From a virus, in IMG/VR virus record IMGVR_UViG_3300018080_000019, positions 1 to 64,000 of that record: 64,000 nucleotides of DNA; one strand, written 5' to 3'. The notes below the pieces were generated by a model that was given only the letters and a program-made list of their open reading frames with translations, ran no database searches and was not told the origin of the DNA. Position 1 is the first letter of the stretch; every line of letters begins with the position of its first letter. The translations under genes were made by a program, and so were the position numbers. Positions 12,571-54,439 of this stretch are shown here, piece by piece.

Positions 12571-12571
12571 T

Positions 12572-14183: not shown

Positions 14184-14192
14184 AGGAAAGCC

Positions 14193-15122
14193 ATGGACCA
14201 GCTTAGAATCTATTATATCGGCAAGTTCCAACTGGACTTTGCTACGGAGCGATATGTTCAGTGGGCTTTGGAAAACCGCCACGGGTGCAACGTGATGCGA
14301 TACAAGGGCCAATCTGTTGAGGACGTGAAAACCATCCTAAAAGAGTACCGTCCCCACGTAGTCCTCTTCAGTAAGGTAGAACCCAAGTATACGGCTAGAC
14401 TCCTAGAGTGGTGTCGTGAAAAGCGTATCCTCACGGTAGCTTGGATTTGGGATCTTTATTGGGGGTGTCGCAGCGAGCGTCCAAAACAGTTTAGGGCAGA
14501 CATGCTTTTCACTACGGATGCAGGTCACCAGAAAGAGTTCAATGCGTACCGCACCAATCACAAAGTCCTGCGTCAAGGCATCCACGAACCTCACCACCGT
14601 ATGTACCTTCCTCCTCAGTATAAGAACAGCGGTGGTCAGATAACTTCAGAGTATCTACACGACGTCGCCTTTGTTGGTGGTGCTACCGGTCATCCCAGCC
14701 GTACAAAGCTAGTCCGCTGGTTGAAGCGTACCTATGGTCCCAGGATGATCCACCATACGAACGTTCGGGGTCTTGATTTGAATAGAGCCCTGGCACGAGC
14801 AAAAGTGGTAGTGGGAGATACGTGGCCTAGTCGTCACTACTGGTCCAACCGTATCTATGAGATCTTGGGTCGTGGGGGGTTTCTATTACACCCAAGAACA
14901 GAAGGTCTCAGCCGGGAGTTTACAGACCGTGTTCACTACGTTGCCTATGAACGTGATGACTTTCCTAGGCTTCGCAGGACCATTGATCATTGGCTTTCCA
15001 ACGAAGCAGAACGGGAGGCAATCAGAAACCGTGGCTTCCAGCTAGTTGGTCGTCACTACACCTACACCGTGCGAACAGCAACTCTCTTAGATTGCATCCG
15101 CACCAGACTTGGGAAAACATGA
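14193..15122 (+). CDS. CgeB-like glycosyltransferase
   Basis: C-terminal YEILGRGGFLLHPRTEGLSREF...YERDDFPRLRRTIDHWLSNEAEREAIRNRGFQLV is typical of the CgeB / Glyco_trans_1_2-type family. Confidence 0.55.
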   Translation: MDQLRIYYIGKFQLDFATERYVQWALENRHGCNVMRYKGQSVEDVKTILKEYRPHVVLFSKVEPKYTARLLEWCREKRILTVAWIWDLYWGCRSERPKQFRADMLFTTDAGHQKEFNAYRTNHKVLRQGIHEPHHRMYLPPQYKNSGGQITSEYLHDVAFVGGATGHPSRTKLVRWLKRTYGPRMIHHTNVRGLDLNRALARAKVVVGDTWPSRHYWSNRIYEILGRGGFLLHPRTEGLSREFTDRVHYVAYERDDFPRLRRTIDHWLSNEAEREAIRNRGFQLVGRHYTYTVRTATLLDCIRTRLGKT

Positions 15123-23939: not shown

Positions 23940-24440
23940 GTGCCAAAAATCCCAGCTAAAAGGGTCTTTATTGGGGTAGACCCTGGTCAAGCCGGAGGCA
24001 TAGCTGCTCTAGTAAGGGACCGTTCCCCTACTCTATTGCTGATGCCCGACACGCCTAAGGATATTCTTGAAGCGTTATCCTCTCTAATCCCTCTCCGCAA
24101 TCCGTTATCTCTCACAACTAGTATTAGGGCTGCTATTGAAGACGTTCACTCTATGCCTAAACAGGGGGTCGCTAGTTCATTCAAGTTCGGTGTAAATAAG
24201 GGTCTACTAATCATGGCCCTTACCGCTTGCAAAATACCGTTCATCGCGGTGAGTCCTCAGAGATGGCAGCGAGCCCTTTCTATACGCCCCCGTGGTAGGA
24301 AGAACAATGAGTCCAAAAACAGTTTCAAAAAACGGTTACGGCAGAAGGCTCAAGAACTCTACCCACAGGCAAAGATCTCCCTGAAAACAGCTGATGCTCT
24401 ACTCATAGCCCATTACCTCAAATACCACGCGAGATTCTAA
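23940..24440 (+). CDS. RuvC-like Holliday junction resolvase
   Basis: GTG start with AGGAGGG upstream. Motifs are FIGVDPGQAGGIA (first Asp), AIEDV (Glu) and TADALLIAHY (C-terminal Asp). Confidence 0.65.
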   Translation: MPKIPAKRVFIGVDPGQAGGIAALVRDRSPTLLLMPDTPKDILEALSSLIPLRNPLSLTTSIRAAIEDVHSMPKQGVASSFKFGVNKGLLIMALTACKIPFIAVSPQRWQRALSIRPRGRKNNESKNSFKKRLRQKAQELYPQAKISLKTADALLIAHYLKYHARF

Positions 24441-24979
24441 TGACACCATTCCAAAAACACTACCGACAGTGGAAGAACTGTGACCGATGCCTTCTCCACA
24501 CACAACGAACTCATGTAGTTATTGCTTCAGGGAATGTACCCTGTGAAATAGCTTTCATAGGGGAAGCCCCTGGTGCTTGTGAGGACGTCTTAGCCGAACC
24601 GTTCGTGGGTCCAGCGGGACACCTTCTGGACCGTATCATCAAAGAGAGCGTGCCGTTGGAAGCCACCATCGGCAAAGGCAACCTAGTAGGGTGTTTTCCC
24701 AGTGAAGTCAAGGGTGATCCTGATCGCAGCAATGAACCCCCAAAAGAAGCGATCAAAGCCTGTCGTCCACGGTTGGAAGAATTGCTAGAATTGTTTAGCC
24801 CTCGTGTGTTAGTAGCAGTTGGTGAACTAGCTGCGAAGAATCTAAAGTGGTACGACGGTGCAGAGCATAAAGTGAAGATCATTCACCCTGCTGCCATACT
24901 ACGGGCAGACGTCAGTCAACAGGGCTTGTTGATAAAGCGGTCGATCGTGACAATTTCTAATTGTTTCTTACCGTTTTAG
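24440..24979 (+). CDS. uracil-DNA glycosylase family 4-like protein
   Basis: CDRC..., IAFIGEAPGACEDVLAEPFVGPAGHLLDRII and HPAAILR are the family 4 motifs GEAPG..E and PFVG.AG. Confidence 0.75.
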   Translation: MTPFQKHYRQWKNCDRCLLHTQRTHVVIASGNVPCEIAFIGEAPGACEDVLAEPFVGPAGHLLDRIIKESVPLEATIGKGNLVGCFPSEVKGDPDRSNEPPKEAIKACRPRLEELLELFSPRVLVAVGELAAKNLKWYDGAEHKVKIIHPAAILRADVSQQGLLIKRSIVTISNCFLPF

Positions 24980-28408: not shown

Positions 28409-28989
28409 GTGACTTTACTGACTACGTTCAGAAGTCGTTGAAGGAGACACGGGCTAGGAGGCCTCGACAAAAGAAGATAGTTACTCGGCCCGAACTACTC
28501 TTACACCCAAACATCCCTGCCCCTCTCCATGGTCTAGCACCTAGAACCATTATGGGCAGCAAGTGGTGGGAGGCTACTAGAGAAGCAGCCTACCGTAAGG
28601 CTCACTACTGTTGTTTGGCTTGCGGTGTCCACAAAAGCAAAGCTAAGTTCCGTCAATGGTTGGAAGCCCACGAAACCTACCAGATCGACTGGCATAAAGG
28701 TCGTTCTGAGTACATAGAAACCGTGGCCCTTTGCCATTGTTGTCATAACTACATTCACAGTGGACGGTTGGAAGCTTTGCTCGAGGAAGGGCGGATTTCC
28801 CACGCGAAGTTCGCAGCAATCCATAGGCACGGTGACGAGATTCTTGCAAAGGCTGGACTAGCAAAGAAGGTGACTCTTGTTTCCAACGAGGCTCCTTGGG
28901 GGAAGTGGAGACTAGTGTTCAACGGTAAGCTTTACAAGCCAAAGTACAAGACCAAGAAGGCTTGGGAAAGGGCTTATGGGAATGATTAG
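28405..28989 (+). CDS. HNH endonuclease-like protein
   Basis: In-frame GTG at 28405 overlapping the upstream stop. Contains CLACGVHK...LEAHETY...CHCCHNYIH. Confidence 0.55.
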   Translation: MSDFTDYVQKSLKETRARRPRQKKIVTRPELLLHPNIPAPLHGLAPRTIMGSKWWEATREAAYRKAHYCCLACGVHKSKAKFRQWLEAHETYQIDWHKGRSEYIETVALCHCCHNYIHSGRLEALLEEGRISHAKFAAIHRHGDEILAKAGLAKKVTLVSNEAPWGKWRLVFNGKLYKPKYKTKKAWERAYGND

Positions 28990-31150
28990 CTTAGACACGG
29001 AGACTACCGGACTTGACTTGAGGCACGGTGCGAAGCCTTACCTTGTAACTACTTGCAACGAAGACATGGAGAACATCTACTGGGAGTGGGACGTTGACCC
29101 TTACACTCGAGAACCCAAGATCCCACGGAGGGACTTGAACCACGTTAAGCGGTTAATCAAAAAGGCCGACCTCCTGGTCTTGCAGAACCCTAAATTCGAT
29201 GTCTGTGCCCTTGCTCAGATTGGCATCAATGACTGGCCGTGGCACAAGACACGGGATACACTCATGGCGGGTCACTTGCTTGCCAGCAATCAGCCACATG
29301 ATCTGGCTACGATGGCCTTGATCTACGCAGACATAAACATCCAACCGTTGGAAGACACTATGAAGGGGGCTGTTGACGCGGCACGTTCCTACATACGTAG
29401 AGAGTTCAAAAAGCGACCGTGGCGACTAGCCCAAAGCGGCTTGCCAGAAATGCCGAGTGTGAAGGGGAGTAACAAGAAGCGAAAGGCTCGAGGGGGTGAA
29501 GAGTGTGGACCGTGGAAGCACGATGCTTGGGTGCCTAGAACACTCGCTTCGCAGTTGGACTACCCTAAGGATCATAGTTGGTGGGGAGTCACCAGTGACT
29601 ACGCTAACGGTGACAGTTCAAGTACCCTATTAGTCTATCTAAAGCAAGAGAAGCTTTTGAAGGAGAGGGGCTTGTGGAAAATCTACCTCGAAAGCCTCAA
29701 GCTCTTGCCTGTCATCTACGCTATGGAATCTCACGGTGTAACTCTAAACGTTGACCGTTGCGTAGAACTGATTGGCATCTACGAGAAGGACACTCAACGG
29801 CGGAAACGCATCTGTCTCCGGGCTGCTGGCGGTCAGCTCAAGGACCTACCGAAGGGCAGTAGGAGCAAGGCACTGACGAACGTTTTGCTGGGAACCCCCT
29901 GCGAGGACTGTAACGGTGAAGGGTACTTGTGGAACGAGACGGGTGGAGGCAAGAAGTCTTGTACTACTTGTTTTGGTAAGGGTCGCCACGGTGGATTTGG
30001 ACTTGTAAGCAATAAGACGACTCCAAAGGGGGCTCCCTGCTTGGACAAGGAAGTGTTGGAACACTGGTCTACTACTCTCAATCCACGGTCAAAAGCCTGT
30101 TTGTTTGTCCGTAACCTCAGGGAGTATCGCAAGCGGGCGACGGCCCTTAGCTACTTGCGGAGCTACGAAAAGTTCTGCCTCCCAACCGAAGCCGGAGAGT
30201 CGTGGCAGGTACTCCACCCCTCCCTGAATCCCACGGGTACTAGTACCCTTCGCTGTAGTAGCAACAATCCAAATGAACAGAACATTAGTAAGAAAGAAGG
30301 GTTCAACCTCCGCTACGTGTTTGGCCCTCTTCCTGGCCGTGAGTGGTGGAGCCTAGATGCTAAGAATATCGAGCTGAGAATACCTGCCTACGAGTGTGGA
30401 GAGCCGGAAGTTATAGAGTTGTTTGAGCATCCAAACATCCCGCCCTACTATGGTAGTGCCCACCTCCTAAACTTCAGCACCATCTACCCAGAAATCTGGG
30501 AGAAGGAGTTGGACGCTGTAGGGTTTGAAAAAGTGGGACCACACTGTAAGAAAAAGTATGAGTCGACGTGGTATCAGTGGTGCAAGAACTTCGACTTTGC
30601 CGTGCAGTATGGGGCGGTCCTAAAAGTAGATTCTGTCGGTACGGCTGACCGAGCGGCTCACAAGGAAGGGGCTCACGCTCTTGTCAAGGCACGGTTCGGC
30701 AAGCTGGATAGCCACAATCAGGCTTGCATAGACTTTGCCAAGAAGCACGGGTATATTGAGACTATACCTGATAAGAACGTAGATAAGGAGCGGGGGTATC
30801 CCCTGCTTTGCACAAGGAATCGGTGGGGAGGGGTAAAGCCTACGATCCCCCTCAACTACCGTACTCAGGGAACGGCAATGTGGTGGATGAGGAAAGGTAT
30901 GGTTCGATGTCACGCCTACTTGCAAACCTTGCCAGACCATCACATGGTGATGCAGGTCCACGACGAACTCGTGTTCGACATGCCCAAACGAAGACTCCGT
31001 GGTCGGAAGCCCTGGGAAGGCAACCGTACGATCGCTGCCGAACTGAAACGTCTTATGGAATTGGGTGGTGAAGACATTGGACTTCCAACACCCGTCAGCG
31101 TAACATACCACGAACACAACTGGAGTGAAGGGCTAGTCCTCTCAATATAA
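28976..31150 (+). CDS. family A DNA polymerase with 3'-5' exonuclease domain
   Basis: Exo I LDTETTGL and Exo II LQNPKFDV. Motif A SLDAKNIELRIPAY, motif B KNFDFAVQYGA, motif C MQVHDELVFD. Carries a CxxCxGxG...CxxCxGxG insertion at 29900-29993. Confidence 0.9.
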   Translation: MGMISLDTETTGLDLRHGAKPYLVTTCNEDMENIYWEWDVDPYTREPKIPRRDLNHVKRLIKKADLLVLQNPKFDVCALAQIGINDWPWHKTRDTLMAGHLLASNQPHDLATMALIYADINIQPLEDTMKGAVDAARSYIRREFKKRPWRLAQSGLPEMPSVKGSNKKRKARGGEECGPWKHDAWVPRTLASQLDYPKDHSWWGVTSDYANGDSSSTLLVYLKQEKLLKERGLWKIYLESLKLLPVIYAMESHGVTLNVDRCVELIGIYEKDTQRRKRICLRAAGGQLKDLPKGSRSKALTNVLLGTPCEDCNGEGYLWNETGGGKKSCTTCFGKGRHGGFGLVSNKTTPKGAPCLDKEVLEHWSTTLNPRSKACLFVRNLREYRKRATALSYLRSYEKFCLPTEAGESWQVLHPSLNPTGTSTLRCSSNNPNEQNISKKEGFNLRYVFGPLPGREWWSLDAKNIELRIPAYECGEPEVIELFEHPNIPPYYGSAHLLNFSTIYPEIWEKELDAVGFEKVGPHCKKKYESTWYQWCKNFDFAVQYGAVLKVDSVGTADRAAHKEGAHALVKARFGKLDSHNQACIDFAKKHGYIETIPDKNVDKERGYPLLCTRNRWGGVKPTIPLNYRTQGTAMWWMRKGMVRCHAYLQTLPDHHMVMQVHDELVFDMPKRRLRGRKPWEGNRTIAAELKRLMELGGEDIGLPTPVSVTYHEHNWSEGLVLSI

Positions 31151-31161
31151 GGAGACTTACT

Positions 31162-31389
31162 ATGGAATTCACTAAGACCTGTATCACCTGTTTGTACTGT
31201 CAGAAACACCCACGGGAAGTTGGACAGGGCTTCTGTCAAAGGTTCCCTCCAACAGTCTCTGCAGTAACCGTCCCTGGTCCCACAAGGAACAGTCTACAGA
31301 TCCAAACGATTACGTCATACCCAAAAGTAACTCTAAAAGAGCATACCTGTGCTGAATACGTGCGAAAGGAGCCTACTAATGGAGGTTGA
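31162..31389 (+). CDS. hypothetical Cys-rich small protein
   Basis: GGAGA upstream. Contains CITCLYC..C residues. Confidence 0.4.
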   Translation: MEFTKTCITCLYCQKHPREVGQGFCQRFPPTVSAVTVPGPTRNSLQIQTITSYPKVTLKEHTCAEYVRKEPTNGG

Positions 31390-32335
31390 AAAGGTGCGGG
31401 AGCATAAGAAGCCATTCACAAGGTTCTGGTATTGGATCAAAGAACGGCATAAGATTTACCTCAAGAAGCAAGCAGCAATGCCGAAGCCCTGGACCGACGA
31501 CGAGATCTTACAGAACTACTTCTTCACAAATCCTTACCGTGAACTAGACAAGACTACGCAATGGCTTCGCCGGCACGTTAGGGAACCCTTTGCAGATGAT
31601 CCAGCGATTTTCGTGGCCACGGTGATTTTCCGCTGGTTCAATCGTATTTCTACAGGGCACTTGTTGAGGTATGGTCGTCCCATAAACCACGGGTGTTCCG
31701 GGAGCCCTTGGAAGGTTAAGAAAGAGTATTGCTACCTCTACACTTGGAACGAGAAGGATGTTGTTACCGTGCTGGAAAAGGCACGGAAACATGGACCAGT
31801 GTTTACGGGGGCGTATATGATCAAAGCTGGTAACGGTCCTAAAGGTTGTAAGATCGCGAGCGTCTGTAAGGCAATCAGTTCTGTGTGGGAGGACCGTGAA
31901 GAACTGGTCGATCTCTGCCTCGAGTCTTCCAGCCTTGAAAAAGTATGGCAACGGTTGCTCAAGTTCGACTACCTTGGGAAGTTCATGGCTTATGAAATAG
32001 TGTGTGACCTTCGCTACACCTATCTTCTCAGGGATGCCGTGGATGTGCTTACGTGGGCCAATCCTGGTCCTGGAGCGAAGCGGGGACTTGCCAGAATGGA
32101 GGGGCGTATTCCAATTAGTCCAACGGGGCGTACGAGGCGGTTTGTGAAGGTAGACCATCCTATTGAGAAGATGCGTGGACTGCTTGCCAGGGTTTCTGGT
32201 AAGCTAGCTCTTTTAGATATGCCCCCCTTCGAGCTCCGTGAGATAGAGCACTCTCTGTGTGAGTGGGACAAGTACGAACGGGCTCTGTGGGGCAAGGGTG
32301 GCAAAATGAAAAGGAGGTATGATGGCTCTGCCTAG
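31379..32335 (+). CDS. putative DNA base hypermodification protein (aGPT-pyrophosphorylase / amino-acid:DNA transferase-like)
   Basis: ATG 31379 with AAGGAG 7 nt upstream. The N-terminus FWYWIKERHKIYLKKQAAMPKPWTDDEILQNYFFTNPYRELDKTTQW matches my recollection of that family (W..ER..I......PWT.D.IL....F.N.YRE.D..T). This was not verified by search. Confidence 0.45.
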   Translation: MEVEKVREHKKPFTRFWYWIKERHKIYLKKQAAMPKPWTDDEILQNYFFTNPYRELDKTTQWLRRHVREPFADDPAIFVATVIFRWFNRISTGHLLRYGRPINHGCSGSPWKVKKEYCYLYTWNEKDVVTVLEKARKHGPVFTGAYMIKAGNGPKGCKIASVCKAISSVWEDREELVDLCLESSSLEKVWQRLLKFDYLGKFMAYEIVCDLRYTYLLRDAVDVLTWANPGPGAKRGLARMEGRIPISPTGRTRRFVKVDHPIEKMRGLLARVSGKLALLDMPPFELREIEHSLCEWDKYERALWGKGGKMKRRYDGSA

Positions 32336-32731: not shown

Positions 32732-33260
32732 CATACGTGGAACACATGGTAGCGGTAAGAGTTGGATCGTGCATCAGTTGTTGAAAAAGTTCGACTTTGA
32801 ACCAGTTGAACAACTCGGTATCCACCTTGGCTACTACAGTCAGCAACTAGACACTGGGATTCTCGGCAAGTATCGTAACATCTGCGGGGGTTGCGACGGT
32901 ATTAAGAGTGCCGACGAAGTGTGCCGGAGGGTGCGATTGTTCAAGGAGAAGTACCACCACACCATCCTTGAGGGTATTCTTGTCTCCCACACGTTCAAGC
33001 GGTACCACGAGTTAGCCGAAGAGCTAGGGGACTACACGTTTCTATTCCTAGACACGCCTGAGGAAGTGTGTATCGCCCGTGTGAGGAAACGACGGTTCCA
33101 CGCTGGTAGGACCAAACCATTCAACCCCTTTCATCTCAAGAATGACTACAGGCAGATTTGGACAAACGTCAGGGTTAAGATGGGAGAAGCTGGTCATAAT
33201 ATAGTCGTCTTGAATCACCGCGACCCTATGCCACAAGTCTTGGAGCTCCTCAATGCCTAA
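32721..33260 (+). CDS. P-loop kinase (candidate 5-hmdU DNA kinase type)
   Basis: N-terminal Walker A IRGTHGSGKSW. Small size (179 aa). Lies next to the hypermodification-like gene. Confidence 0.5.
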   Translation: MIFDIRGTHGSGKSWIVHQLLKKFDFEPVEQLGIHLGYYSQQLDTGILGKYRNICGGCDGIKSADEVCRRVRLFKEKYHHTILEGILVSHTFKRYHELAEELGDYTFLFLDTPEEVCIARVRKRRFHAGRTKPFNPFHLKNDYRQIWTNVRVKMGEAGHNIVVLNHRDPMPQVLELLNA

Positions 33261-34215
33261 ACTTATTCCCAATCAAAAACTCCTTGCAGATTTAGCGAAT
33301 ATGACCCACAAAGCGATGGAGACGGGGGACTTTGACCCTATGTATCCTATGCTGGATTGGTTATGTAAAGACATGGAAAAGGAAGACTCGATCTGGTATG
33401 CGATGTGTTATGTGGGTCATTACAATATCGCAAGTGGGGTGTGGTGCTTTCATGATCATCCCAAACAAGTGCGAAAGCTGAAGCGGAAGTATCCGTTGCG
33501 ATTCCAGCGTAGGAACTTAAATCCCGGCAACGAGTATGAACGGCATTGGGAATCGCTTTGGTCTCTGAAGAAAAAGTACGGTAGTCTCACTAAATGGATT
33601 GAACGGGGTATGACTGGGGACGGTAGGCATGACTTCTACTGGATTGATCAAGTAGTTCGTGAAGTTCGCGGCAATAACCGATGGGCTGGGATGAAACTGG
33701 GAGAAGTGCTGAAGTACACGACTTGGAGTCATGTTACCCCGTGTGATATGTGCCACCGTGCTAGTGCTAGTCCACGAAAAGGGCTCGGCCTATTCTTCAA
33801 GGACCCTGGTGGCAATTCGGATAAAGTAATTGCACAACTTGACAGATGGGGCGAGATTGTAACAAGGTCAGTCGCTAATAAGATAGGAAATACACGGTGG
33901 CCACTCGGTATCGCTGAGATGGAAAGTTGTTTGTGTGATTTCAAAGGAATGTATAACGGTAAGTTCTACAGTGGAAACTGTGCCGACGTTGTACTCGCCA
34001 CACTCACCAGTTCAAAGGCTCCTAACAAGCTATTAGAGCCGGTCTATGCTTCTCGAGCAGAGATATTCGATCATCGCGTGCTAGGTGAGTTTAGTGGCTG
34101 GAATGGTGTGGATAAACGTAGAAAGATCCTATACAAGAAATATGGAGCAATACCATGGAGATGGGAAACCTTGGAGAGTTTAGACCTGGAAACTTCTCGG
34201 TCGGAAATAGGGTAG
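33253..34215 (+). CDS. hypothetical protein (possibly a second base-modification transferase)
   Basis: Coupled start. No motif recognised with confidence; assignment is by context only. Confidence 0.45.
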   Translation: MPKLIPNQKLLADLANMTHKAMETGDFDPMYPMLDWLCKDMEKEDSIWYAMCYVGHYNIASGVWCFHDHPKQVRKLKRKYPLRFQRRNLNPGNEYERHWESLWSLKKKYGSLTKWIERGMTGDGRHDFYWIDQVVREVRGNNRWAGMKLGEVLKYTTWSHVTPCDMCHRASASPRKGLGLFFKDPGGNSDKVIAQLDRWGEIVTRSVANKIGNTRWPLGIAEMESCLCDFKGMYNGKFYSGNCADVVLATLTSSKAPNKLLEPVYASRAEIFDHRVLGEFSGWNGVDKRRKILYKKYGAIPWRWETLESLDLETSRSEIG

Positions 34216-34934
34216 TTTCAGTGACCGAAGTGTTTAGGTCTGTCAGCAAATGTTGGCAGGGACCTAGCATACAACCGCCGAAGGTGTTCGGCTCCGTGTT
34301 CGTAACACAATCGGTACGAACCCGCTGCTCATTCGAACGAGCAGCGATCGATCTGGGTATGGGTGTAATTACGGTCACTGAGCGTCGCGATAATGAACCG
34401 TTGCGGGACTTTGGCTTCGCAGTAGCCCAATCCTGTGATCTGTGTGTTGTTAGGTTATGGGGCAACGATTTTGAGGAGTTTGTGTCTGACATAGACATCC
34501 CAGTTATTGATGGTGGGCAGGGTACTAAGAGTCATCCAACGCAAGCCCTTGTCGACCTATACACACTAGTCGATAATGGCATTTTGCCTCCTGCTAGAAT
34601 CGGTCTATTCGGTCCCCCTGAAAACCGAACGATGCACAGCTTCCGTCAGCTAGCTAGTCAGTCAGGGTACCGTTGCTTTGAGTTTATGGATCAAGACCTT
34701 TTTAGTTGTAGGAAGGAGTACGACGTTATTTATGGAGTAACTTTTGGTAACTGGTACGGGGTGGAACGTTCTATCCCTAAAGGACTTACAGCAAAAATCA
34801 TGCACCCATTCCCTCGAGGGAAGGTGGTTCCATCCACCTACGATTTTACGGATCAAGACCTTTACCATCAGCAAATGAAAAACGCGATTAGAGTTAGGAG
34901 GGCTTTATGTGCGGTATTGTTGGATTCAATGTAG
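34155..34934 (+). CDS. aspartate/ornithine carbamoyltransferase-superfamily protein
   Basis: SVRTRCSFERAAIDLG is the S-x-R-T-R carbamoyl-phosphate motif. SHPTQALVDLYTL is HPTQ. IMHPFPRG is the ATCase-type HPxPR. At 259 aa it is shorter than canonical enzymes. Confidence 0.65.
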   Translation: MEMGNLGEFRPGNFSVGNRVVSVTEVFRSVSKCWQGPSIQPPKVFGSVFVTQSVRTRCSFERAAIDLGMGVITVTERRDNEPLRDFGFAVAQSCDLCVVRLWGNDFEEFVSDIDIPVIDGGQGTKSHPTQALVDLYTLVDNGILPPARIGLFGPPENRTMHSFRQLASQSGYRCFEFMDQDLFSCRKEYDVIYGVTFGNWYGVERSIPKGLTAKIMHPFPRGKVVPSTYDFTDQDLYHQQMKNAIRVRRALCAVLLDSM

Positions 34935-36487
34935 GAAAGGCTGGGAAAGTCAGCTCCTTACTCAAAATGTTAGATGCAGTCAAGCACCGTGGCCCTGATC
35001 AGGGTGGTTATCTAGTGTTTGGAGACACTTATCTTGGACACGCACGGTTGAAAGTTCGCGGCGGTGATAACCTGACTCAACCGTTCCTTTCAAACCATCA
35101 CTACTTAGATAGTTCTACACGGTGGGCATATTCCGTAAACGGTGAGCTCTATAATGAGAGAGCGTGGAGGGATACTGATTGCGAACTTGTAGCTCAGTAT
35201 GATGCTAGACAGTTAATCGGTGAGTTTGCCTATGCTGCTTGTAATTGTGCTTCAGATGAAACGGTACTATGCCGTGATCGATTCGGTATAAATCCAATGT
35301 ACTATTACTGGAAACCGGGGATGTATGTGTTTGCTAGTGAGATTGGAGCTATCAAAGCTTCTAACCTCGTTCCCTGGTCAGTTGATCCTAGAGCTCCTTG
35401 CCGTCAGTTCGTAAATATGATAGTCCCTAATCTTACAGACATCAAGGGTATTAAGGCGGTACCACCCGGATGCATAGTCACTCTAACAAGGGATAGGCCC
35501 CCAGTTGTTACGGAGTATTGGGACGTTCCTGTTGGTGAGGGGTGGCTTAGTGCTGAAGAAGCTGTGGATTCTGTTGTAGAGCAACTTACTACTGCCGTGA
35601 AGAACCGGACTAAAGATACAAAAGTTTTGGCCTATGTTAGCAGCGGTATGGATGGACAAATCATACGTAAACTAGGCAACCTTCCAAGTATTACATGCGA
35701 CTTTGGTGATGGGGACAACTACAGGGAAGCAACCCACACGATAACCGACTTATCCTACCGAGACGCGGAAGGGTACCATTCCTTAGAGGACTTGATGAGG
35801 GAATGTGCCCTTCGATCGGATCGAACTATCTACAATCCAATCGGGGTCGCGAAGTGGAAGTTGTCTCAACAGGCTCGAGAATTAGGGTACCGTGTGATAG
35901 TTAGTGGGCAAGGTGCTGATGAATTATTCTGCGGATACCAGTTTCTGCAAGAAAAACCGTGGGCTAGTTTATCCTCCAATAACAAAACGATCAGTCACCC
36001 TGCTTTTGAAGATTGCTTCGGTTTTACGCCTCAGATGTTTCATCCTTGGATACAACTGTGGGAAGCCAGCATATTTCATTCGGAGTATGATCCGTTCGCT
36101 GAAGTTGCCGAACTACTTGCTCCTAAGGTAAAGTCCCTTGATCGTATTACTCTTCAACAATACGTTTGGATCAAAACTCACTTCGAGTCCCAGATTTTGA
36201 CTTGGGGTGGAGACCGTCCAGAAATGACTAACAGTATAGAAGGGAGAGTACCGTTCCTTGACTTGGTGGATATAGCGTTTAGTATTAGAGCAGAAGAGCG
36301 GTTGAATAAGAAGGTGCTTCGACTGGCTTTTGATCAACACACACCAAAACGATCGTTCATGTTCCCATACTACAATATGGTTGAGCCGTATAAGTGTCCG
36401 TTACTACGTGAATCAGTCCACGGAGCCCTTGCTAATGTGGCTTACTGGCAATGGATCACTTGGAAAGCAATGTTTGGGGGGCAATAG
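34907..36487 (+). CDS. asparagine synthetase (glutamine-hydrolysing)-like amidotransferase
   Basis: MCGIVGF gives the Ntn class II glutaminase Cys2. The PP-loop-like motif is AYVSSGMDGQ. Length 526 aa. Confidence 0.75.
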   Translation: MCGIVGFNVGKAGKVSSLLKMLDAVKHRGPDQGGYLVFGDTYLGHARLKVRGGDNLTQPFLSNHHYLDSSTRWAYSVNGELYNERAWRDTDCELVAQYDARQLIGEFAYAACNCASDETVLCRDRFGINPMYYYWKPGMYVFASEIGAIKASNLVPWSVDPRAPCRQFVNMIVPNLTDIKGIKAVPPGCIVTLTRDRPPVVTEYWDVPVGEGWLSAEEAVDSVVEQLTTAVKNRTKDTKVLAYVSSGMDGQIIRKLGNLPSITCDFGDGDNYREATHTITDLSYRDAEGYHSLEDLMRECALRSDRTIYNPIGVAKWKLSQQARELGYRVIVSGQGADELFCGYQFLQEKPWASLSSNNKTISHPAFEDCFGFTPQMFHPWIQLWEASIFHSEYDPFAEVAELLAPKVKSLDRITLQQYVWIKTHFESQILTWGGDRPEMTNSIEGRVPFLDLVDIAFSIRAEERLNKKVLRLAFDQHTPKRSFMFPYYNMVEPYKCPLLRESVHGALANVAYWQWITWKAMFGGQ

Positions 36488-36542: not shown

Positions 36543-36884
36543 CTACAGCTTCTTGGCCACCTTACGACCAGTGGAGGTCACCTTGAAATACTTTGCTCGG
36601 CTCCCCTCGTAGGTAGCTTCCTCTGCGTACCCCAACTCAATCAGCTTGGGGTAGCCAGTCGTGGTTCTGCCTACGGCCGCTTGCAGGTCTGCCCTTGTCA
36701 AGCCGTCCCCCTTCACGGGCTCCCCTGCCAGAACTTTGAGGGTCTCTGCTTGTCCTTGGGTCAGGCCAGCATCTTTGGCAGGGTTCTTGTCGGTGGCCTT
36801 GCCCTTGCCCTTGGCCTTGCCCTTGGTGGCTTTGGTGGCCTTGCTCTTGGCGGTAGCTTTCTTCTTCGCAGGTACTTTCGGCAT
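36543..36884 (-). CDS. winged-helix DNA-binding protein with histone H1-like K/A-rich N-terminal tail
   Basis: KKKATAKSKATKATKGKAKGKGKA tail followed by LTQGQAETLKVLAGEP...LTRADLQAAVG...GYPKLIELGYAE...YFKVTSTG. It has its own promoter and terminator. It is the lone minus-strand gene in a plus block. Confidence 0.6.
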   Translation of the reverse strand: MPKVPAKKKATAKSKATKATKGKAKGKGKATDKNPAKDAGLTQGQAETLKVLAGEPVKGDGLTRADLQAAVGRTTTGYPKLIELGYAEEATYEGSRAKYFKVTSTGRKVAKKL

Positions 36885-36954: not shown

Positions 36955-36976
36955 ACAATGGTCGGGGGTTTTGCAA
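36948..36976 (-). promoter_or_regulatory. leftward promoter for 36543..36884
   Basis: Minus strand reads TTGCAA (36976-36971), a 17-nt spacer, then TACATT (36953-36948). Its upstream region is shared with the 21651-21697 promoter. Confidence 0.45.
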
Positions 36977-37036
36977 CCCCAAAATAGCAAATTTAGCAAA
37001 ATAGTCGTAAGTTGTTTCTACATAAAGGGTTACGAC

Positions 37037-37630
37037 ATGATAAAAAAGCCTATCAAAGGCGTATTGCTGGACCTCGACGAGGTACTAGCCGACTTTGCTG
37101 GTGGTGCTTGTAGGGTACACGGTAAGCGGTTGGAAAACCTGGAACCGGGCGAGCCGCGAGACTTGCAGGTAAAGCTGGGACTGAGAAGCAAAGAGGCGTT
37201 CTGGAAACCAATCAATTCCCGGGGGATAAGCTTTTGGGAGTACTTGGAACCGCTACCTTGGATAGAAGAACTCCTCATAATAGCCAGGGCCCTCAGTGAA
37301 GAACCCATCAGAATTATCACTACACCACCGTCAGGTCCAGGTGCTCATCTGGCAATTCTAGGAAAGCACAGATGGCTAGTTAAGATCCTTGGATGGACTG
37401 ACAGGAACCGATACATATTCACGCGGGATAAAAAGATCTACTCCTTGCCTGGATACGTTCTTATAGATGACAGCCGAAAGAACGTAGTGCGGTTCAGTGA
37501 AGGGAGAGGTCTCGGAATCTTGTTCCCTGCCTACTTCAACCAGTATTACGAAGAGCGGAACAATCCTTTGCCTCGAGTTACAAATGCCCTATTACAAATT
37601 GGAGAACACAATGCACTTCACTTTCCGTAA
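37037..37630 (+). CDS. HAD-superfamily 5'(3')-deoxyribonucleotidase-like phosphatase
   Basis: ATG 37037. GVLLDLDEVLADFAGG matches the NT5C-type motif I (DxDxVLADF). Also YVLIDD. Confidence 0.6.
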   Translation: MIKKPIKGVLLDLDEVLADFAGGACRVHGKRLENLEPGEPRDLQVKLGLRSKEAFWKPINSRGISFWEYLEPLPWIEELLIIARALSEEPIRIITTPPSGPGAHLAILGKHRWLVKILGWTDRNRYIFTRDKKIYSLPGYVLIDDSRKNVVRFSEGRGLGILFPAYFNQYYEERNNPLPRVTNALLQIGEHNALHFP

Positions 37631-38882
37631 CGTCAACGAAGCGTTCCCTAAGCTGGTTTCTTTCATGTGTGACCCTTCCTCCGTGGGAAGCCCCCCTAGT
37701 GCGGTTCGTAAGGAGGATAGTCGCAACGGTCCTGTCTTGCGTGTAGCAGAACCTGTGACTGTGACCTATACCAATCCACGGGAAAGAGTACTGTTCAACT
37801 ACGGTAGGGATTGCAACCCCTTCTTCCACCTGTTCGAAGCACTATGGATGCTGGCAGGTCGCAACGATGTGAAGCCCCTGGTTTACTACAACCCGCGGAT
37901 GGCGGAGTATAGTGATGACGGGCAAATATTCCATGGGGCTTACGGTCATCGTTGGCGGAATCAGACAATCTCCGTGTGGAATTCTAATAGTCCTAGGACA
38001 GAGTCCTGCCCCCATTGTGGGATGTCGGAAGAACCGTTTGACCAGATAGAGGCAATTATTGCCCATCTGAATAGTGATCCTAACTCTCGCCGCGAAGTAC
38101 TCCAGGTATGGGAGTATCAGGCAGACTTGTGGGCACGTCCAAAAGGGGCGAAGGATCTACCGTGCAATACTCAAGCATACTTCTCCTTACGGGAGTTGCC
38201 TGATAGAGGGCCTATTGCAGAAGATGGGTCTTTCCAATCCCACGTTGTGAAACACGCCTTGGATATGACCGTGTGCAATCGTTCCAACGATCTTGTCTGG
38301 GGTATGCTCGGTGCGAACGTAGTGCATTGGAGTATGCTCCAGGAGTACCTAGCAAATTGTCTAGCAAATTGTCTTGAAGTAGAGGTTGGTCACTACCATC
38401 AGTTCACAAACAATCTACACGTTTACACAGAACGGTTCACTCCTGAAAAGTGGTTTCCGTTGACCCACCCGAAGACGATGCACGACCCTGTTGAGTTAGA
38501 CTACGGTCCACCATCAGGGGCTCAGGCGATCAACCAGATACTAGGGAAGTTTGACGGGACGAAGGCCCCTTACGAGATTCTCCCGTACCGCTTGTCCCTG
38601 GTTCACGATAAAGCCACGTTCGACGAGGAGGTAAATATCTTCATCGACTATATTGATGATTACCGGTTGAACGGGGCAGACGGTTTTTACCAGGAGCCGT
38701 TCTTGCGGGATGTTGCTCAACCGATGATGGCAGCCTTCCGGGCACACAAGAATCGACGGTATCGTGGGGACAATAATGCTTTCACACTGATAGAACGTGT
38801 TCACGCTGACGATTGGAGAGCCGTCGGTAAACAGTGGCTTCGCCGACGGTGTGAAGCTTGGGATAAGAAGGGAGAGAAGTGA
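37611..38882 (+). CDS. thymidylate synthase-family pyrimidine C5 transferase (candidate dUMP hydroxymethylase)
   Basis: ATG 37611 with GGAGA upstream. Motifs are RDCNPFFHLFEALWMLAGRND, YGHRWR, FDQIEAIIAHLNSDPNSRR, LPCNTQAYF (catalytic Cys), CNRSNDLVWGMLGANVVH and NNLHVY. About 100 aa longer than ThyA. Confidence 0.7.
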   Translation: MHFTFRNVNEAFPKLVSFMCDPSSVGSPPSAVRKEDSRNGPVLRVAEPVTVTYTNPRERVLFNYGRDCNPFFHLFEALWMLAGRNDVKPLVYYNPRMAEYSDDGQIFHGAYGHRWRNQTISVWNSNSPRTESCPHCGMSEEPFDQIEAIIAHLNSDPNSRREVLQVWEYQADLWARPKGAKDLPCNTQAYFSLRELPDRGPIAEDGSFQSHVVKHALDMTVCNRSNDLVWGMLGANVVHWSMLQEYLANCLANCLEVEVGHYHQFTNNLHVYTERFTPEKWFPLTHPKTMHDPVELDYGPPSGAQAINQILGKFDGTKAPYEILPYRLSLVHDKATFDEEVNIFIDYIDDYRLNGADGFYQEPFLRDVAQPMMAAFRAHKNRRYRGDNNAFTLIERVHADDWRAVGKQWLRRRCEAWDKKGEK

Positions 38883-52100: not shown

Positions 52101-53096
52101 GTTGTGTCTGGAGCGGCCTTCGGTACGGCAGTCGGTGTCGCTAGTTATCTCCAACAGAACAAAGGTAACTCCAACTTTACAAAGGTTCAGCTCGCTAAGG
52201 TCCAGGTTTACAATCCTAACGGTATTAGCGACGGGGTGCTGAACGTGCCGAAAGCGATGATGGCTAATCCCGCAAACCTCAAGCACCTACAGAAGATCCT
52301 TCCGGCTGGAACTGTTATCAAGCTCAGTGGGAAGAAAACGAGCAAATCTAAGCTTCCTTCAGCGGTTGCCAAACGCTACGGCATCACTGTTGACTATTCA
52401 ACCATCCAGTCAGGCACAAAGTCGGCCAAGGCAAAAGCTGCGAAGAAGAGCAAGACCCTACCGTCCCACTTCGTACAGGGTGTCCATACGGGAGGATACT
52501 ACAGTACTCCAAACAAAAGCGGGAAGGTGATTGGTGGCAGTCAGGCTGAGGTTAAGTTCAAGCACTCCCTCACTTATGATGAAAAGCACGCTATAGGGAG
52601 TTGGAAGGGTTCGGCCCGTAGCATCCGTAAGAACTACGTGGAAGCCAAGAAGGGTAAGGCTACTATGAGTCCTAAGACTAAGAATATTGTAAGTGCGATA
52701 GAAAAGGCCCCCGCCCACGAAGGGATTGCTTACCGTGGGATCCATAGTAGTGGCGGTCCTAAGCATAAGGATTATGCTCACAAGCAGATGGCAGCAATTG
52801 AGAAAGCTGGGATCGGGGGGACTTGGGTAGACGATGCTCCAACAGGGTTCAGTAAGAACGCTCAAACGGGTGCTTCCTTTTCCCATGGAGACTTGCTACT
52901 CAAAGTCAAAACCAGGGGTAAGAATATGCGGAGTATTGCTAACGTTGAGAACTTTGGTGGTGAAGCTGAAATGCTCGCTCGTCCAGGCACTAAGTTCCGC
53001 ATTGTCGGTATCCAAAAAGATGTTACCGTCAAGATCCAAGGAGCAGGTCATAAGAAGAAGCATGTCAAAATGCTCGTTGAAATGGAGGAAACGTAA
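49110..53096 (+). CDS. polyvalent virion protein: ART - Nudix - unknown - kinase-like - K-rich - ART
   Basis: 1328 aa. Four delimiter motifs. See the domain features and findings below. Confidence 0.8.
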   Translation: MPDLLEQIGLRILRRRYLYSTGLRVIAENYHPNQPRDSRGRFGSGGGDGGGKRGDQLEVMNPDLFWEELPPALDKNRKQVEGMVGKNPEIRSTIEVYTSDGYEVFNAQLREGKPDPKKVKEVASAFHISESEMQGMVDEGIPALDKITSLDLDKPITTYRGVDEHTTNEILKAAKKGKGVTISDEAFQSTSINPEVAATFAARGGSNVIMEITAKRGAYLETISYTPGDGEFLLPRNSKLRIDSVHEGVKMKIPEGVDVENPNAPWFKKDITVIRATQVPGKKKEVVPKKKKYKTVKKRSTKNVERKDTRHKRFVIDYFILEEGVENYNPNQPRDARGRFGSGGGGGGGSMSPMNHKRMRRWTKEDYEQYPGWDGSTGHEASYGGAIFNDEGKILLREPSHHFDGYVWTLPKGRCNGPDDNPVDTALREVAEETGHKGQITGLVPGRFEGGTSHMNLFVMQSRGYNSKLRDKETHSTKWATYEEAIDLVGKTKNPIGRRRDLQAVHAAFKARDSLVKNYHPNQPRDSRGRFGSGGSGGGGGLASIDVDKPEPINATLLHGGTDKEGDLVTYYTDDRSVAESYVQMSNDRFGEGGAVHEKQVSIKSPAPREEVLKEANRIGIDVESDGYTPASVFDTELYDRTDVKRLVAGLRDKGYDGAVLQDVPYGGEGSPVNVAIAFSGKVKSKYDLPPWLRNVRNWHPSQPRDYRGRFGSGGGAGAGFVLPNPNEVEFVKNLPGSTHPKLVRDKDGKLWVMKEALTAEKVKRLENEIDADNAYRALGVDVPPSGVVLNPERSDRAHKFSEYIDGGQTLDDWKHGKDKAQIQEMHDKIGEHFVADATLANWDVIGLENDNILIKDGKPYRIDNGGALLYRAQGAPKGSKFSDQVIELDTLRDKGKNYSSGTVFGNLPPDKINQQIVDISKKRAAVLEAVSNPKTREKLKARFNDLKSKAKVIKKELAPKVKGKITKQPTSGKPIKSSGAKKKVTAATKEKATGEGVVSGAAFGTAVGVASYLQQNKGNSNFTKVQLAKVQVYNPNGISDGVLNVPKAMMANPANLKHLQKILPAGTVIKLSGKKTSKSKLPSAVAKRYGITVDYSTIQSGTKSAKAKAAKKSKTLPSHFVQGVHTGGYYSTPNKSGKVIGGSQAEVKFKHSLTYDEKHAIGSWKGSARSIRKNYVEAKKGKATMSPKTKNIVSAIEKAPAHEGIAYRGIHSSGGPKHKDYAHKQMAAIEKAGIGGTWVDDAPTGFSKNAQTGASFSHGDLLLKVKTRGKNMRSIANVENFGGEAEMLARPGTKFRIVGIQKDVTVKIQGAGHKKKHVKMLVEMEET
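49194..49262 (+). repeat. delimiter peptide motif copy 2
   Basis: NYHPNQPRDSRGRFGSGGGDGGG. Confidence 0.85.
49368..49850 (+). other. ADP-ribosyltransferase domain 1 (R-S-E type)
   Basis: YTSDGYEVFNAQLREG, TYRGV (49584-49592), AFQSTS (49671-49682) and GDGEFLLPR (Glu at 49800). Confidence 0.65.
50088..50156 (+). repeat. delimiter peptide motif copy 3
   Basis: NYNPNQPRDARGRFGSGGGGGGG. Confidence 0.85.
50157..50660 (+). other. Nudix hydrolase domain
   Basis: The Nudix box is GRCNGPDDNPVDTALREVAEETGH (about 50345-50416), fitting G-x5-E-x7-REUxEExGU. Confidence 0.75.
50661..50732 (+). repeat. delimiter peptide motif copy 4
   Basis: NYHPNQPRDSRGRFGSGGSGGGGG. Confidence 0.85.
51201..51269 (+). 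repeat. delimiter peptide motif copy 5
   Basis: NWHPSQPRDYRGRFGSGGGAGAG. Confidence 0.8.
51270..51810 (+). other. atypical kinase-like domain
   Basis: KLWVMKE is a candidate ATP-binding Lys. LANWDVIGLENDNILIKDGKPYRIDNGG is a D-x4-N catalytic-loop plus IDxG pattern, resembling PI3/4-kinase-like or atypical protein kinases. Confidence 0.4.
52570..53093 (+). other. ADP-ribosyltransferase domain 2 (R-S-E type)
   Basis: IAYRGI, TGFSKN and FGGEAEMLARPGTKFRIVG (ExE). Confidence 0.6.
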
Positions 53097-54439
53097 TGGG
53101 CAGACCTAACTACAGCGAAGGGCACATGCGAGAGGCTACCTTTGAGGAGCAGATGCAATATGCTACACTCACTGATGCTGAAGGCAATGTGATCCGCCCA
53201 GAGGACATCTCCTATGGAGAATTGTTAGACTGGCTTGATGAGAACGACCTGTTGGATATGACGGGCGTTCCTAAGGAAGTTGTAGCTACAGGTGAGCTCT
53301 ACAGGGGCACAGAAAATTATCACCCCAATCAGCCTAGAGATAGCCGTGGACGTTTTGGGTCTGGTGGGGGAGGGGGTGGAGGTTCCTTGAGTACGAAGGA
53401 GGGGCTCGCCGATTATGTATCTAAGAACAAAGGCAAAGCTAAGTTCACAGATTTACAACTCGCTAAGCTCGAAGTCTATAATCCTAACGGACTTAAAGGG
53501 GGTGTGGTCAATGTGCCAAAAGCGATGTTGAAGAACCCCAAGAACCGTAAGCAGTTAGAAGCTATTTTGCCAGAAGGAACCAAAATCAAGCTGAGTGGTA
53601 AGAAGGTCAGTAAGTCACAGATGTCCCCGGAGTTACGTAAGAAATACAACCTCGAGGGAAAGCCCGACGTGCCAAAAGTAGTTCAACCGAAGAAGGTGTC
53701 AAAGAAAGGGGGTGTAGATAAAGGAGCATCAACGAAGGGTGGGGTGGGTGACAACCGTACTTTGAGTAGACAAACCAAGGATACTCCAGTCAGCCCAGCT
53801 ATGATGGATAGTGCCGAGAATACGGAGTGGGCTTGTGATAACGAACCAGGAATGGCAGAGGCTGTTGGGTTCTATACAGAAGCTGGATATGACATAGTCA
53901 ACGATGGTTTGAGGACTGGAGACTGGGATCTAAGTGTGTACGGCTCTGATACAATAGAAGACATTGAGATGATGTACGACGCACCCCACGGTAAAGTGAA
54001 GTCTTGGATAAAGAAAGAAGTTGTTCATAAGCTAGATGATCTAACCTCCACAGACCTGGAGGGAGAGGGAGCCACAGTCTACCGTGGATTGGGGTCTCAT
54101 ACTGGTAAGAAGATCCTGGCTCAAGCAGAAGCTGGTGGTCACCCGGTTATAGTTGACAAAGCCTTCCAATCGACTTCTACTGATCCTGATACAGCAGCAG
54201 CGTTTTCAACTGGGACAAATATCGTGATGCAGATCACAGCAAAGCGAGGAGCATATCTCGAAGAAGTAAGTAGTAGTTCGGGCGAGTACGAATTTCTCAT
54301 GCCCCGAAAAACGAAACTCCGTGTTGACGGTGTTGATCACAATGTAACGTTGAAGACCCAAAAGTATAAGGCCGAAGACGATACGTACGAGACCGGATAT
54401 AAGAAACTGACCGTCATAAGGGCTACCCAAGTAATCTAG
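53096..54439 (+). CDS. virion-module protein: leader - delimiter motif - K-rich module - ADP-ribosyltransferase
   Basis: TAATG overlap. The ART (about 53851-54436) has FYTEAGYDIVNDGLRTG, VYRGLG, AFQSTS and GEYEFLMPR. It is a paralogue of ART domain 1. Confidence 0.75.
   Translation: MGRPNYSEGHMREATFEEQMQYATLTDAEGNVIRPEDISYGELLDWLDENDLLDMTGVPKEVVATGELYRGTENYHPNQPRDSRGRFGSGGGGGGGSLSTKEGLADYVSKNKGKAKFTDLQLAKLEVYNPNGLKGGVVNVPKAMLKNPKNRKQLEAILPEGTKIKLSGKKVSKSQMSPELRKKYNLEGKPDVPKVVQPKKVSKKGGVDKGASTKGGVGDNRTLSRQTKDTPVSPAMMDSAENTEWACDNEPGMAEAVGFYTEAGYDIVNDGLRTGDWDLSVYGSDTIEDIEMMYDAPHGKVKSWIKKEVVHKLDDLTSTDLEGEGATVYRGLGSHTGKKILAQAEAGGHPVIVDKAFQSTSTDPDTAAAFSTGTNIVMQITAKRGAYLEEVSSSSGEYEFLMPRKTKLRVDGVDHNVTLKTQKYKAEDDTYETGYKKLTVIRATQVI
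53315..53383 (+). repeat. delimiter peptide motif copy 6
   Basis: NYHPNQPRDSRGRFGSGGGGGGG. Confidence 0.85.

Follow-up and report, generated by a model that had tools for sequence, protein, structure and literature searches.

In phages M6, PaMx11, and ViI, 5-hydroxymethyldeoxyuridine (5-hmdU) in the DNA is phosphorylated, a transferase installs an amino acid, and the resulting adduct is tailored by enzymes encoded by neighbouring genes (Lee et al., PMC8989533). The amino acid is linked through the nitrogen of glycine in M6 and PaMx11 and through the oxygen of serine in ViI, and the tailoring enzymes of M6 and PaMx11 are encoded beside the transferase (PMC8989533). Post-replicative thymidine hypermodification is a known anti-restriction strategy of phages, of which few tailoring chemistries have been worked out; the same study left unexplained several "amidoligase" and "glutaminotransferase" domains in metagenomic clusters, and it mentions no carbamoyltransferase (PMC8989533). 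Here, we describe a gene pair from a 64,000-nucleotide stretch of viral DNA (IMG/VR record IMGVR_UViG_3300018080_000019, positions 1 to 64,000; hereafter, the window), which encodes a short protein resembling aspartate carbamoyltransferase (ATCase) and a glutamine amidotransferase resembling the asparagine synthetase AsnB. It is highly probable that both proteins are tailoring enzymes of a thymidine hypermodification pathway, and the pair most likely decorates the DNA bases of the phage itself rather than making pyrimidines or asparagine.

The window shares with the M6, PaMx11, and ViI pathways a gene resembling those of deoxyuridine monophosphate (dUMP) hydroxymethylases, a 5-hmdU kinase, an amino acid:DNA transferase (ADDT) with its Cys/Glu pair, and two tailoring genes beside the transferase, and its phage is of a type related to M6-like and PaMx11-like phages, to which its DNA is weakly similar. 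However, the known pathways tailor with radical S-adenosylmethionine (SAM), pyridoxal phosphate (PLP), flavin adenine dinucleotide (FAD), and acetyltransferase enzymes, whereas the tailoring genes of the window encode an ATCase fold and an AsnB fold. Neither an ATCase-fold enzyme nor a glutamine-dependent AsnB-fold enzyme has been described as a thymidine tailor in the literature searched. The type of pathway is known, and it is the two enzyme folds that are newly linked to thymidine hypermodification.

The sole known DNA carbamoyltransferase is a phage enzyme of the TobZ family (TobZ/NodU), which transfers the carbamoyl group of carbamoyl phosphate to a DNA base, O-carbamoylating 5-hydroxymethylcytosine (5hmC) (PMC8670742). 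As is expected of the window enzyme, it uses carbamoyl phosphate as the donor and a modified pyrimidine in DNA as the acceptor; however, it has an unrelated ATP-dependent fold (PF02543/PF16861), whereas the window enzyme has the fold of ATCase and is expected to N-carbamoylate the amine of a thymidine adduct. The latter would be the first member of the superfamily of ATCases and ornithine carbamoyltransferases (OTCases) proposed to act on DNA, and it might serve as a compact tool for the site-directed carbamoylation of DNA. On the side of the amidotransferase, CmoY, a phage homologue of AsnB, joins glycine to the carboxylate that 5-carboxymethylcytosine carries in DNA, and a glutaminase-bearing sister cluster of CmoY has been proposed to amidate that carboxylate (PMC12783734). 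CmoY shows that the AsnB family is able to act on a carboxylate borne by a DNA base; unlike CmoY, the window protein stands in a thymidine rather than a cytosine context and retains the glutaminase residues, so that the amine is probably ammonia. No close relation between the two proteins was detectable, with no Synechococcus phage record among the GenBank phage matches.

The gene pair and its active sites

34155..34934, plus strand: short ATCase-like carbamoyltransferase of 259 aa, identified by OTCace_N, 1ML4, and AlphaFold2 (AF2)/Foldseek; an alternative start at ATG 34161 is possible
34895..34900, plus strand: Shine–Dalgarno sequence AGGAGG of the AsnB-like gene, located within the ATCase-like gene at its 3' end, read from the sequence
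34907..36487, plus strand: AsnB-like glutamine amidotransferase of 526 aa, with an N-terminal nucleophile (Ntn) glutaminase domain and a PP-loop synthetase domain

The ATCase-like open reading frame (ORF) carries the motifs SVRTR (residues 53–57), HPTQ (127–130), and HPFPR (217–221), and the AsnB-like ORF begins with MCGIVGF and holds SSGMDGQ at residues 245–251. Both ORFs, these motifs, and the overlap of 28 nt between them (34907–34934) had been pointed out in an earlier, sequence-only reading of the window, and all of them hold. The end of the ADDT gene (34215) overlaps the ATCase-like ORF by a further 61 nt, and each gene has a Shine–Dalgarno sequence upstream of its start (GGAG at a distance of 7 nt from ATG 34155, AGGAGG at 6 nt from ATG 34907). 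Coupled expression, which had been proposed from the 28-nt overlap, is plausible, although the overlap itself is not kept among the relatives, where it amounts to 16 nt or is absent. The motifs of both proteins are invariant even in relatives of 46–54% identity, indicating that the two ORFs are real genes under selection and not chance ORFs.

The ATCase-like protein matches OTCace_N (PF02729) at 5e-22, with 79 bits against a cut-off of 29.9, while its C-terminal match to PF00185 stays below threshold (17 bits against 29.4). The family profile finds an ATCase as its best match in the PDB (1ML4, 3e-30), with OTCases weaker, and the AF2 model (predicted local distance difference test, pLDDT, 78; predicted template modelling score, pTM, 0.81) has ATCases as its top Foldseek matches, with template modelling (TM) scores of 0.72–0.79. 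Both OTCace_N and Foldseek place the protein in the two-domain transcarbamylase fold. Its residues were mapped in an alignment with Salmonella PyrB and in a 102-sequence alignment, and are numbered here as in ATCase. The carbamoyl-phosphate site (S52, R54, T55, R105, H134, and Q137) is invariant in the eight known members of the family, as are R167 and HPxPR. R167 is the residue that binds the alpha-carboxylate in ATCase; the phage proteins have R at this position throughout (8/8), whereas the OTCases have N (12/12). The sequence-only reading had left the choice between aspartate and ornithine carbamoyltransferases undecided; the retention of R167, together with the best structural match, speaks for the aspartate type and against the ornithine type.

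The part of the active site that serves the aspartate side chain is missing. In ATCase, R229 and Q231 bind the beta-carboxylate of aspartate; all eight phage proteins lack both of them (T/S and G are found there), while they are present in 53/64 and 52/64 representative ATCases, respectively. The spacing between R167 and H265, which is 97 residues in PyrB, is reduced to 47–58 residues in the phage family, the shortest among the sequences compared, and the 240s loop has been removed. Compared to the catalytic chain of PyrB, the phage protein thus keeps the fold, the complete carbamoyl-phosphate site, R167, and HPxPR, but it is approximately 50 residues shorter (with about 45 residues of the aspartate domain lost), HPLPR has become HPFPR in 8/8 members (L267F), and there is neither a pyrI gene nor a pyr context. 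The curated NCBIfam models for ATCase (TIGR00670, 94.3 bits against a cut-off of 236.95), OTCase (TIGR00658, 42.8 against 280.85), and putrescine carbamoyltransferase (35 against 500) are all missed by a wide margin. Taken together, these features suggest that carbamoyl phosphate is still bound, along with an amine that bears an alpha-carboxylate or a similar amine, and that the aspartate side-chain pocket and the lid have been lost, as would suit a large acceptor like a DNA base adduct. The isoelectric points of the proteins are uninformative on DNA binding, and the mapping of K84, which is alignment-dependent, was not used as evidence. The search of representatives also returned short ATCases, about 275 aa in length; these were rejected as relatives, since they keep R229 and Q231 and are, therefore, ordinary ATCases.

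The AsnB-like protein is recognized by the Pfam families Asn_synthase (2e-25) and GATase_7 (4e-14), and its AF2 model (pLDDT 84, pTM 0.89) is matched in Foldseek by the hydroxyamidotransferase TsnB9, AsnB, human ASNS, and beta-lactam synthetase, as well as by carbapenam synthetase. Three close relatives with 47–49% identity are all found in the same kind of cluster, and beyond them the identity falls to 31–33%, with bacterial proteins of 645–670 aa. In an 84-sequence alignment, the Ntn glutaminase site (Cys1, R49, N74, E76, and D98) is kept in 4/4 phage proteins, and so are S234, G236, D238, D351, E352, Y357, K429, and K449. The protein shares its two-domain fold with AsnB and TsnB9 (7YLZ); its glutaminase site looks active, and it has a PP-loop ATP site, with two changes in the synthetase site that are discussed below. 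Lactam synthetases have lost Cys1, and the intact glutaminase site speaks against such a function and for an amidotransferase that uses glutamine-derived ammonia. In SSGMDGQ, which the sequence-only reading had taken for a degenerate PP-loop, the S-x-G-x-D core is in fact conserved, and a single change, S239G, is specific to the clade. R387 is not conserved, and the mapping of residues 376–387 depends on the alignment and was not used as evidence. The protein scores 180.4 bits with the AsnB equivalog TIGR01536, whose cut-off is 267.1. Neither member of the pair, therefore, reaches the NCBIfam cut-off for PyrB, ArgF, or AsnB, which agrees with the divergence of both proteins from the housekeeping forms noted in the sequence-only reading.

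Cluster context, distribution, and bacterial counterparts

The genes surrounding the pair are listed below, with related loci given by their numbers (L001 and so on):

28976–31150: DNA polymerase A
31349..32335, plus strand: HMUDK_hel (PF18723) protein (Pfam 1.9e-51), syntenic in L001, L005, L193, and L196
32721..33260, plus strand: P-loop 5-hmdU DNA kinase, with a weak PF18748 match (21 bits) and 50% identity to its PF18748-bearing L001 orthologue
33253..34215, plus strand: ADDT (the same as clade 2 aGPT-Pplase), PF18724 2e-7
36971..37630, plus strand: NT5C-type deoxyribonucleotidase (PF06941 9e-11), with syntenic counterparts in L001 and L005; translation probably starts downstream of the TTG
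37497..38882, plus strand: thymidylate synthase (TS)-like protein, probably a dUMP hydroxymethylase (PF00303 8e-16, PHROG 5131 3e-94); start uncertain

The pair directly follows the genes for the 5-hmdU DNA kinase and the ADDT, and lies near the dUMP-hydroxymethylase-like gene. The ADDT of the window carries the invariant E..E..LC motif, including the Cys/Glu pair, which is reported to be essential (PMC8989533), and the TS-like gene shows DNA similarity to genes of M6-like and PaMx11-like phages, some of them annotated as deoxyuridylate hydroxymethyltransferase. The window thus holds the whole core by which thymidine hypermodification is recognized, namely a TS homologue, a 5-hmdU kinase, and an ADDT with Cys/Glu (PF00303, PF18748, PF18724, and PF18723), and these matches support that the phage encodes a core pathway of predicted dUMP hydroxymethylase, 5-hmdU DNA kinase, and ADDT. 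The tailoring enzymes of the known pathways (radical SAM, PLP, FAD, or acetyltransferase) have no homologue in the window, and neither do ATP-grasp, amidoligase, or JmjC proteins; the tailoring slot beside the transferase is filled by the ATCase-like and AsnB-like genes. The embedding among DNA-modification genes noticed in the sequence-only reading, with the ADDT/kinase pair on one side and the dUMP-hydroxymethylase-like gene on the other, is found again in every related locus.

Just after the AsnB-like gene, the minus strand (36543–36884) encodes a small Lys/Ala-rich protein with a histone H1-like N-terminal tail. It has no Pfam match, it shares 46% identity over its C-terminal half with the product of a syntenic gene on the minus strand of L001, and L005 and L006 have minus-strand ORFs at the corresponding position.

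The ATCase-like family was searched for with a word-indexed search over 5.8 billion clusters and exhaustively with HMMER over 1.84 billion (1.84e9) representatives. The former returned 3 relatives, and the latter 6 proteins with E ≤ 1e-30, which are set apart from the ordinary ATCases that come next, at 1e-25. Including the window, the family has eight known members, 8/8 of which are located in phage thymidine-hypermodification clusters, where three architectures are distinguished. The first, which combines ADDT, ATCase-like, and AsnB-like genes, is represented by the window, L001/L002, L004, L005 (where the family gene was missed by the gene caller, yet is intact), and L006. The order of the window, which is kinase, ADDT, ATCase-like, AsnB-like, NT5C, and TS-like, is kept in L001 and L005, and the shorter contigs L004 and L006 keep the ADDT/ATCase-like/AsnB-like core at 46–54% identity. 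In the second, exemplified by L003 (248–2512), an Amidoligase_2 gene lies directly upstream of the ATCase-like and AsnB-like genes. Its product is 41% identical to its counterparts in L193 and L196, and the arrangement, as judged from sequence, shows modular shuffling of tailoring genes. The third is found in the marine contigs L193–L197, which hold radical SAM, ADDT, PALP, amidoligase-like, ATP-grasp, ATCase-like, and JmjC/cupin genes, and no AsnB-like gene:

L193, 5109–11667: architecture-3 cluster, with PALP as a PLP enzyme, ATP-grasp of the GSH-S_ATP type, and a JmjC/cupin hydroxylase
L196, 5164–11574: architecture-3 cluster with the same enzymes

The composition of the L193 and L196 clusters predicts a thymidine adduct that is peptide-like, carbamoylated, and possibly hydroxylated.

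By tblastn and by blastn, neither gene has a close homologue among the GenBank phages (50,697 records); the best matches are cellular-type pyrB and asnB genes with approximately 26% identity, mostly in contaminant records. Pattern-based scans of IMG/VR and JGI metagenomes with the family alignment returned just ordinary ATCases, with a full-length identity of at most 30%, although an exact look-up did place the protein P0173 on two JGI contigs. The ATCase-like family is, thus, confined to thymidine-hypermodification clusters, in which it is used combinatorially. A family as rare as this, with eight members and yet three architectures, provides a clean test case for the recombination of tailoring modules among phages.

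Outside phages, the nearest AsnB-like proteins (P0056, P0057, and P0061) are each encoded immediately downstream of an ATCase-like transcarbamylase of 365–381 aa. Such bacterial pairs were noted at the following loci:

L106, L108, L111, L113–L126, L129, L131, L144, and L198: bacterial pair loci, with a transcarbamylase of 355–381 aa followed by an AsnB-like protein of 638–714 aa

In a locus scan with one genome per species, the ATCase-like gene is directly upstream in 17/21 loci of this AsnB-like subfamily, compared to 0/59 more distant AsnB-like loci. A hidden Markov model (HMM) of the phage AsnB-like proteins scores 242–300 bits on 21/21 members of the subfamily, whereas its scores on the 59 others do not exceed 181 bits, and E. 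coli AsnB reaches 91 bits. From these scores, the phage AsnB-like protein apparently derives from the bacterial transcarbamylase-paired subfamily. The pairs occur in Ectothiorhodospira, Thiorhodospira, Thioalkalivibrio, Thiohalobacter, Idiomarina, and further taxa of marine or haloalkaliphilic habit, often with an SSF transporter gene and a 40-codon ORF ahead of the pair. That of Ectothiorhodospira lacustris lies between genes for an M20 peptidase and an isochorismatase-family hydrolase and a gene for an MscS-type channel, with a sucrose synthase gene adjacent. These loci look osmolyte-type. The osmolyte carbamoyl-glutamine-amide was discovered in the genus Ectothiorhodospira (PMC1224877), and no biosynthetic genes for it are named in the literature searched; the bacterial pair probably makes this compound, carbamoylating the alpha-amine and amidating the alpha-carboxylate.

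Phage and bacterial pairs are alike in the two folds, in the gene order, and in a transcarbamylase that lacks R229 and Q231, and the phage AsnB-like protein has its closest relatives in the bacterial AsnB-like subfamily. The pairs differ in that the bacterial proteins are full length and keep E348 and S239, and in that the bacterial genes, whose function is itself presumed, are surrounded by transporter, channel, and hydrolase genes and not by DNA-modification genes. Compared to these cellular relatives, both phage proteins have been trimmed, from 355–381 to 240–266 aa for the ATCase-like protein and from 638–714 to 526–558 aa for the AsnB-like one, which is consistent with opened active sites. 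The shared gene order suggests that the whole bacterial module may have been captured as a unit.

Proposed chemistry and rival explanations

According to the mechanism proposed here, 5-hmdU in the DNA would be phosphorylated, and the ADDT would exchange the phosphate of the resulting 5-PmdU for an amino acid. The ATCase-like enzyme would then transfer a carbamoyl group from carbamoyl phosphate to the free primary amine of the appended amino acid, the loss of the aspartate side-chain pocket and the 240s lid opening its active site to a substrate whose "side chain" is a DNA base. The AsnB-like enzyme would hydrolyse glutamine at Cys1 and convert the free carboxylate of the adduct, activated by ATP, into a carboxamide. 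The retention of R167 suggests that carbamoylation precedes amidation. The product would be a neutral thymidine bearing an N-carbamoyl amino-acid amide, for instance 5-(N-carbamoyl-serinamide-O-methyl)-deoxyuridine (dU) if serine were O-linked as in ViI. A free primary alpha-amine and an alpha-carboxylate would be available in an O-linked serine (ViI) or in a C-alpha-linked glycine (radical SAM isomerase), and a gamma-linked glutamate from an amidoligase would also offer both groups, fitting the L003 and L193 architectures. Such an adduct, with ureido and carboxamide groups, would be a DNA modification not yet described, and would shield the phage DNA from host nucleases, like other thymidine hypermodifications. 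While the assignment of the pair to the tailoring of thymidine is firm in comparison, this specific chemistry, with a carbamoyl and an amide cap added on DNA to the ADDT-attached amino acid, stands at even odds.

Several observations weigh against this chemistry. The ADDT does not reveal the appended amino acid by homology, as it gave no match to the enzymes of M6, PaMx11, ViI, or PhiW-14, and the nearest phage ADDTs are uncharacterized actinophage proteins of approximately 30% identity. If it linked glycine through its amine, by analogy with M6, just a secondary amine would be left for carbamoylation. The ATCase-like genes of L193 and L196 have no AsnB-like partner, so the two steps need not be coupled. 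The synthetase site of the AsnB-like protein carries S239G and E348Q in 4/4 phage proteins (window residues 250 and 335), at positions that are S in 80/80 and E in 79/80 of the other sequences, changes that are unique to the phage clade among the AsnB-family amide formers. E348 is required in E. coli AsnB for the formation of the acyl-adenylate, and the synthetase (adenylation) chemistry may thus be altered. Finally, the capture of a bacterial module is mirrored by one protein of the pair but not by the other. As to the phylogeny against cellular homologues that the sequence-only reading had proposed as a check, HMM scores group the AsnB-like protein with the bacterial paired subfamily, whereas profile scores, identities, and a neighbour-joining tree place the phage ATCase-like clade on the ATCase side without specific affinity to the bacterial partner. 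With a mean identity of 28% to that partner and 29% to ordinary ATCases, and with profile scores of 73–85 bits on the partner, 79 on PyrB, and 106 on the best ordinary ATCases, the phage ATCase-like clade is at least as close to ordinary ATCases as to the bacterial partner.

E348Q and S239G are the main unexplained feature of the pair, and they keep two other chemistries alive. In one of them, the AsnB-like enzyme would feed glutamine-derived ammonia to the ADDT, giving 5-aminomethyl-dU, and the ATCase-like enzyme would carbamoylate it to 5-ureidomethyl-dU, the carbamoyl analogue of the 5-acetylaminomethyl-dU of PaMx11. We consider this route unlikely, although a changed adenylation chemistry, as suggested by both substitutions, would suit it. 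The corresponding slot in PaMx11 also holds two tailoring genes, giving 5-NmdU and then its N-acetyl derivative, the ATCase-like genes of L193 and L196 accompany radical SAM and PALP genes like those that make simple primary amines in M6, and the ADDT accepts foreign nucleophiles in vitro. However, the continued invariance of S234, G236, D238, D351, E352, K429, and K449 argues for a continued use of ATP, R167 as a binder of the alpha-carboxylate is kept in 8/8 proteins, there is no precedent for ammonia being handed to the covalent DNA intermediate of another enzyme, and, to our knowledge, every characterized enzyme of the AsnB family acts on a carboxylate. The other chemistry, which is more improbable still, is the synthesis of a guanidino group: the ATCase-like enzyme would make a ureido group, and the AsnB-like enzyme would adenylate its oxygen and replace it with glutamine-derived ammonia, leaving a cationic guanidinium on thymidine in a reaction akin to those of GMP synthetase or argininosuccinate synthetase. 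Other PP-loop enzymes do aminate ureido-type carbonyls, and the adjacency and translational coupling of the genes, as well as the clade-specific changes at two otherwise invariant synthetase-site residues, could be read in the same sense. Known thymidine hypermodifications are, in addition, often cationic (PMC8989533). Nevertheless, a ureido group is not a known substrate of any AsnB-family member, the ATCase-like protein of L193 and L196 lacks an AsnB-like partner, and the ancestral bacterial pair most simply gives a carbamoyl and an amide group, not a guanidine. If true, this reaction would yield a new arginine-like DNA base by a reaction never seen in the asparagine synthetase family.

Other explanations place the activity of the pair elsewhere. 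The pair might make a free N-carbamoyl amino-acid amide that the ADDT then attaches, or even a free metabolite unrelated to DNA, in keeping with the closest cellular AsnB-like proteins, which appear to act on free metabolites in osmolyte-type loci; DNA as the substrate is, moreover, not provable from sequence. This possibility remains a minor one, since all the characterized tailoring steps of these pathways take place on DNA (PMC8989533), a doubly capped amino acid would offer the ADDT fewer nucleophiles, the strong trimming of both phage proteins and the disappearance of the ATCase 240s lid fit a bulky substrate, and the family is found solely beside DNA-modification genes. Auxiliary metabolism, in which the pair would boost the pyrimidine (carbamoyl-aspartate) and asparagine supply of the host during infection, is the least credible of these alternatives, with hardly any weight left to it. 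Homology to PyrB and AsnB exists at the family level and asnB-like genes are present in some phages, but the scores fall far short of the equivalog cut-offs (94 against 237 bits for ATCase, 43 against 281 for OTCase, and 180 against 267 for AsnB), R229, Q231, and the 240s loop are absent, the AsnB-like protein carries E348Q, and the pair is strictly tied to ADDT clusters, with no instance among the GenBank phage records. It was rejected on account of the curated cut-offs, the missing substrate residues, and the DNA-modification context. The tailoring of a modified base, which the sequence-only reading had favoured over auxiliary metabolism, is thus borne out by the gene context, the sub-cut-off scores, the loss of the aspartate-binding residues, and the restriction of the family to phage clusters, while its alternative of a tailored glycan found no support.

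Other genes of the window

Further genes of the window lie at a distance from the pair. The phage, in which 5-hmdU derivatives are predicted to take the place of thymidine, encodes a uracil-DNA glycosylase superfamily protein (24440–24979, plus strand; PF03167, 3e-20) in its replication module. The tail-gene region ends, on the plus strand (11218–15122), with genes for a Methyltransf_24 protein and two glycosyltransferase-like proteins (PF13524; the one at 14193–15122 at 1e-17), enzymes that might glycosylate virion proteins or take part in further modification. Between the portal region and a Mu F-like head-morphogenesis gene, a plus-strand gene (53096–54439) encodes a protein of 447 aa with an ADP-ribosyltransferase exoenzyme domain (PF03496, 2e-11), which may be an ejected effector.

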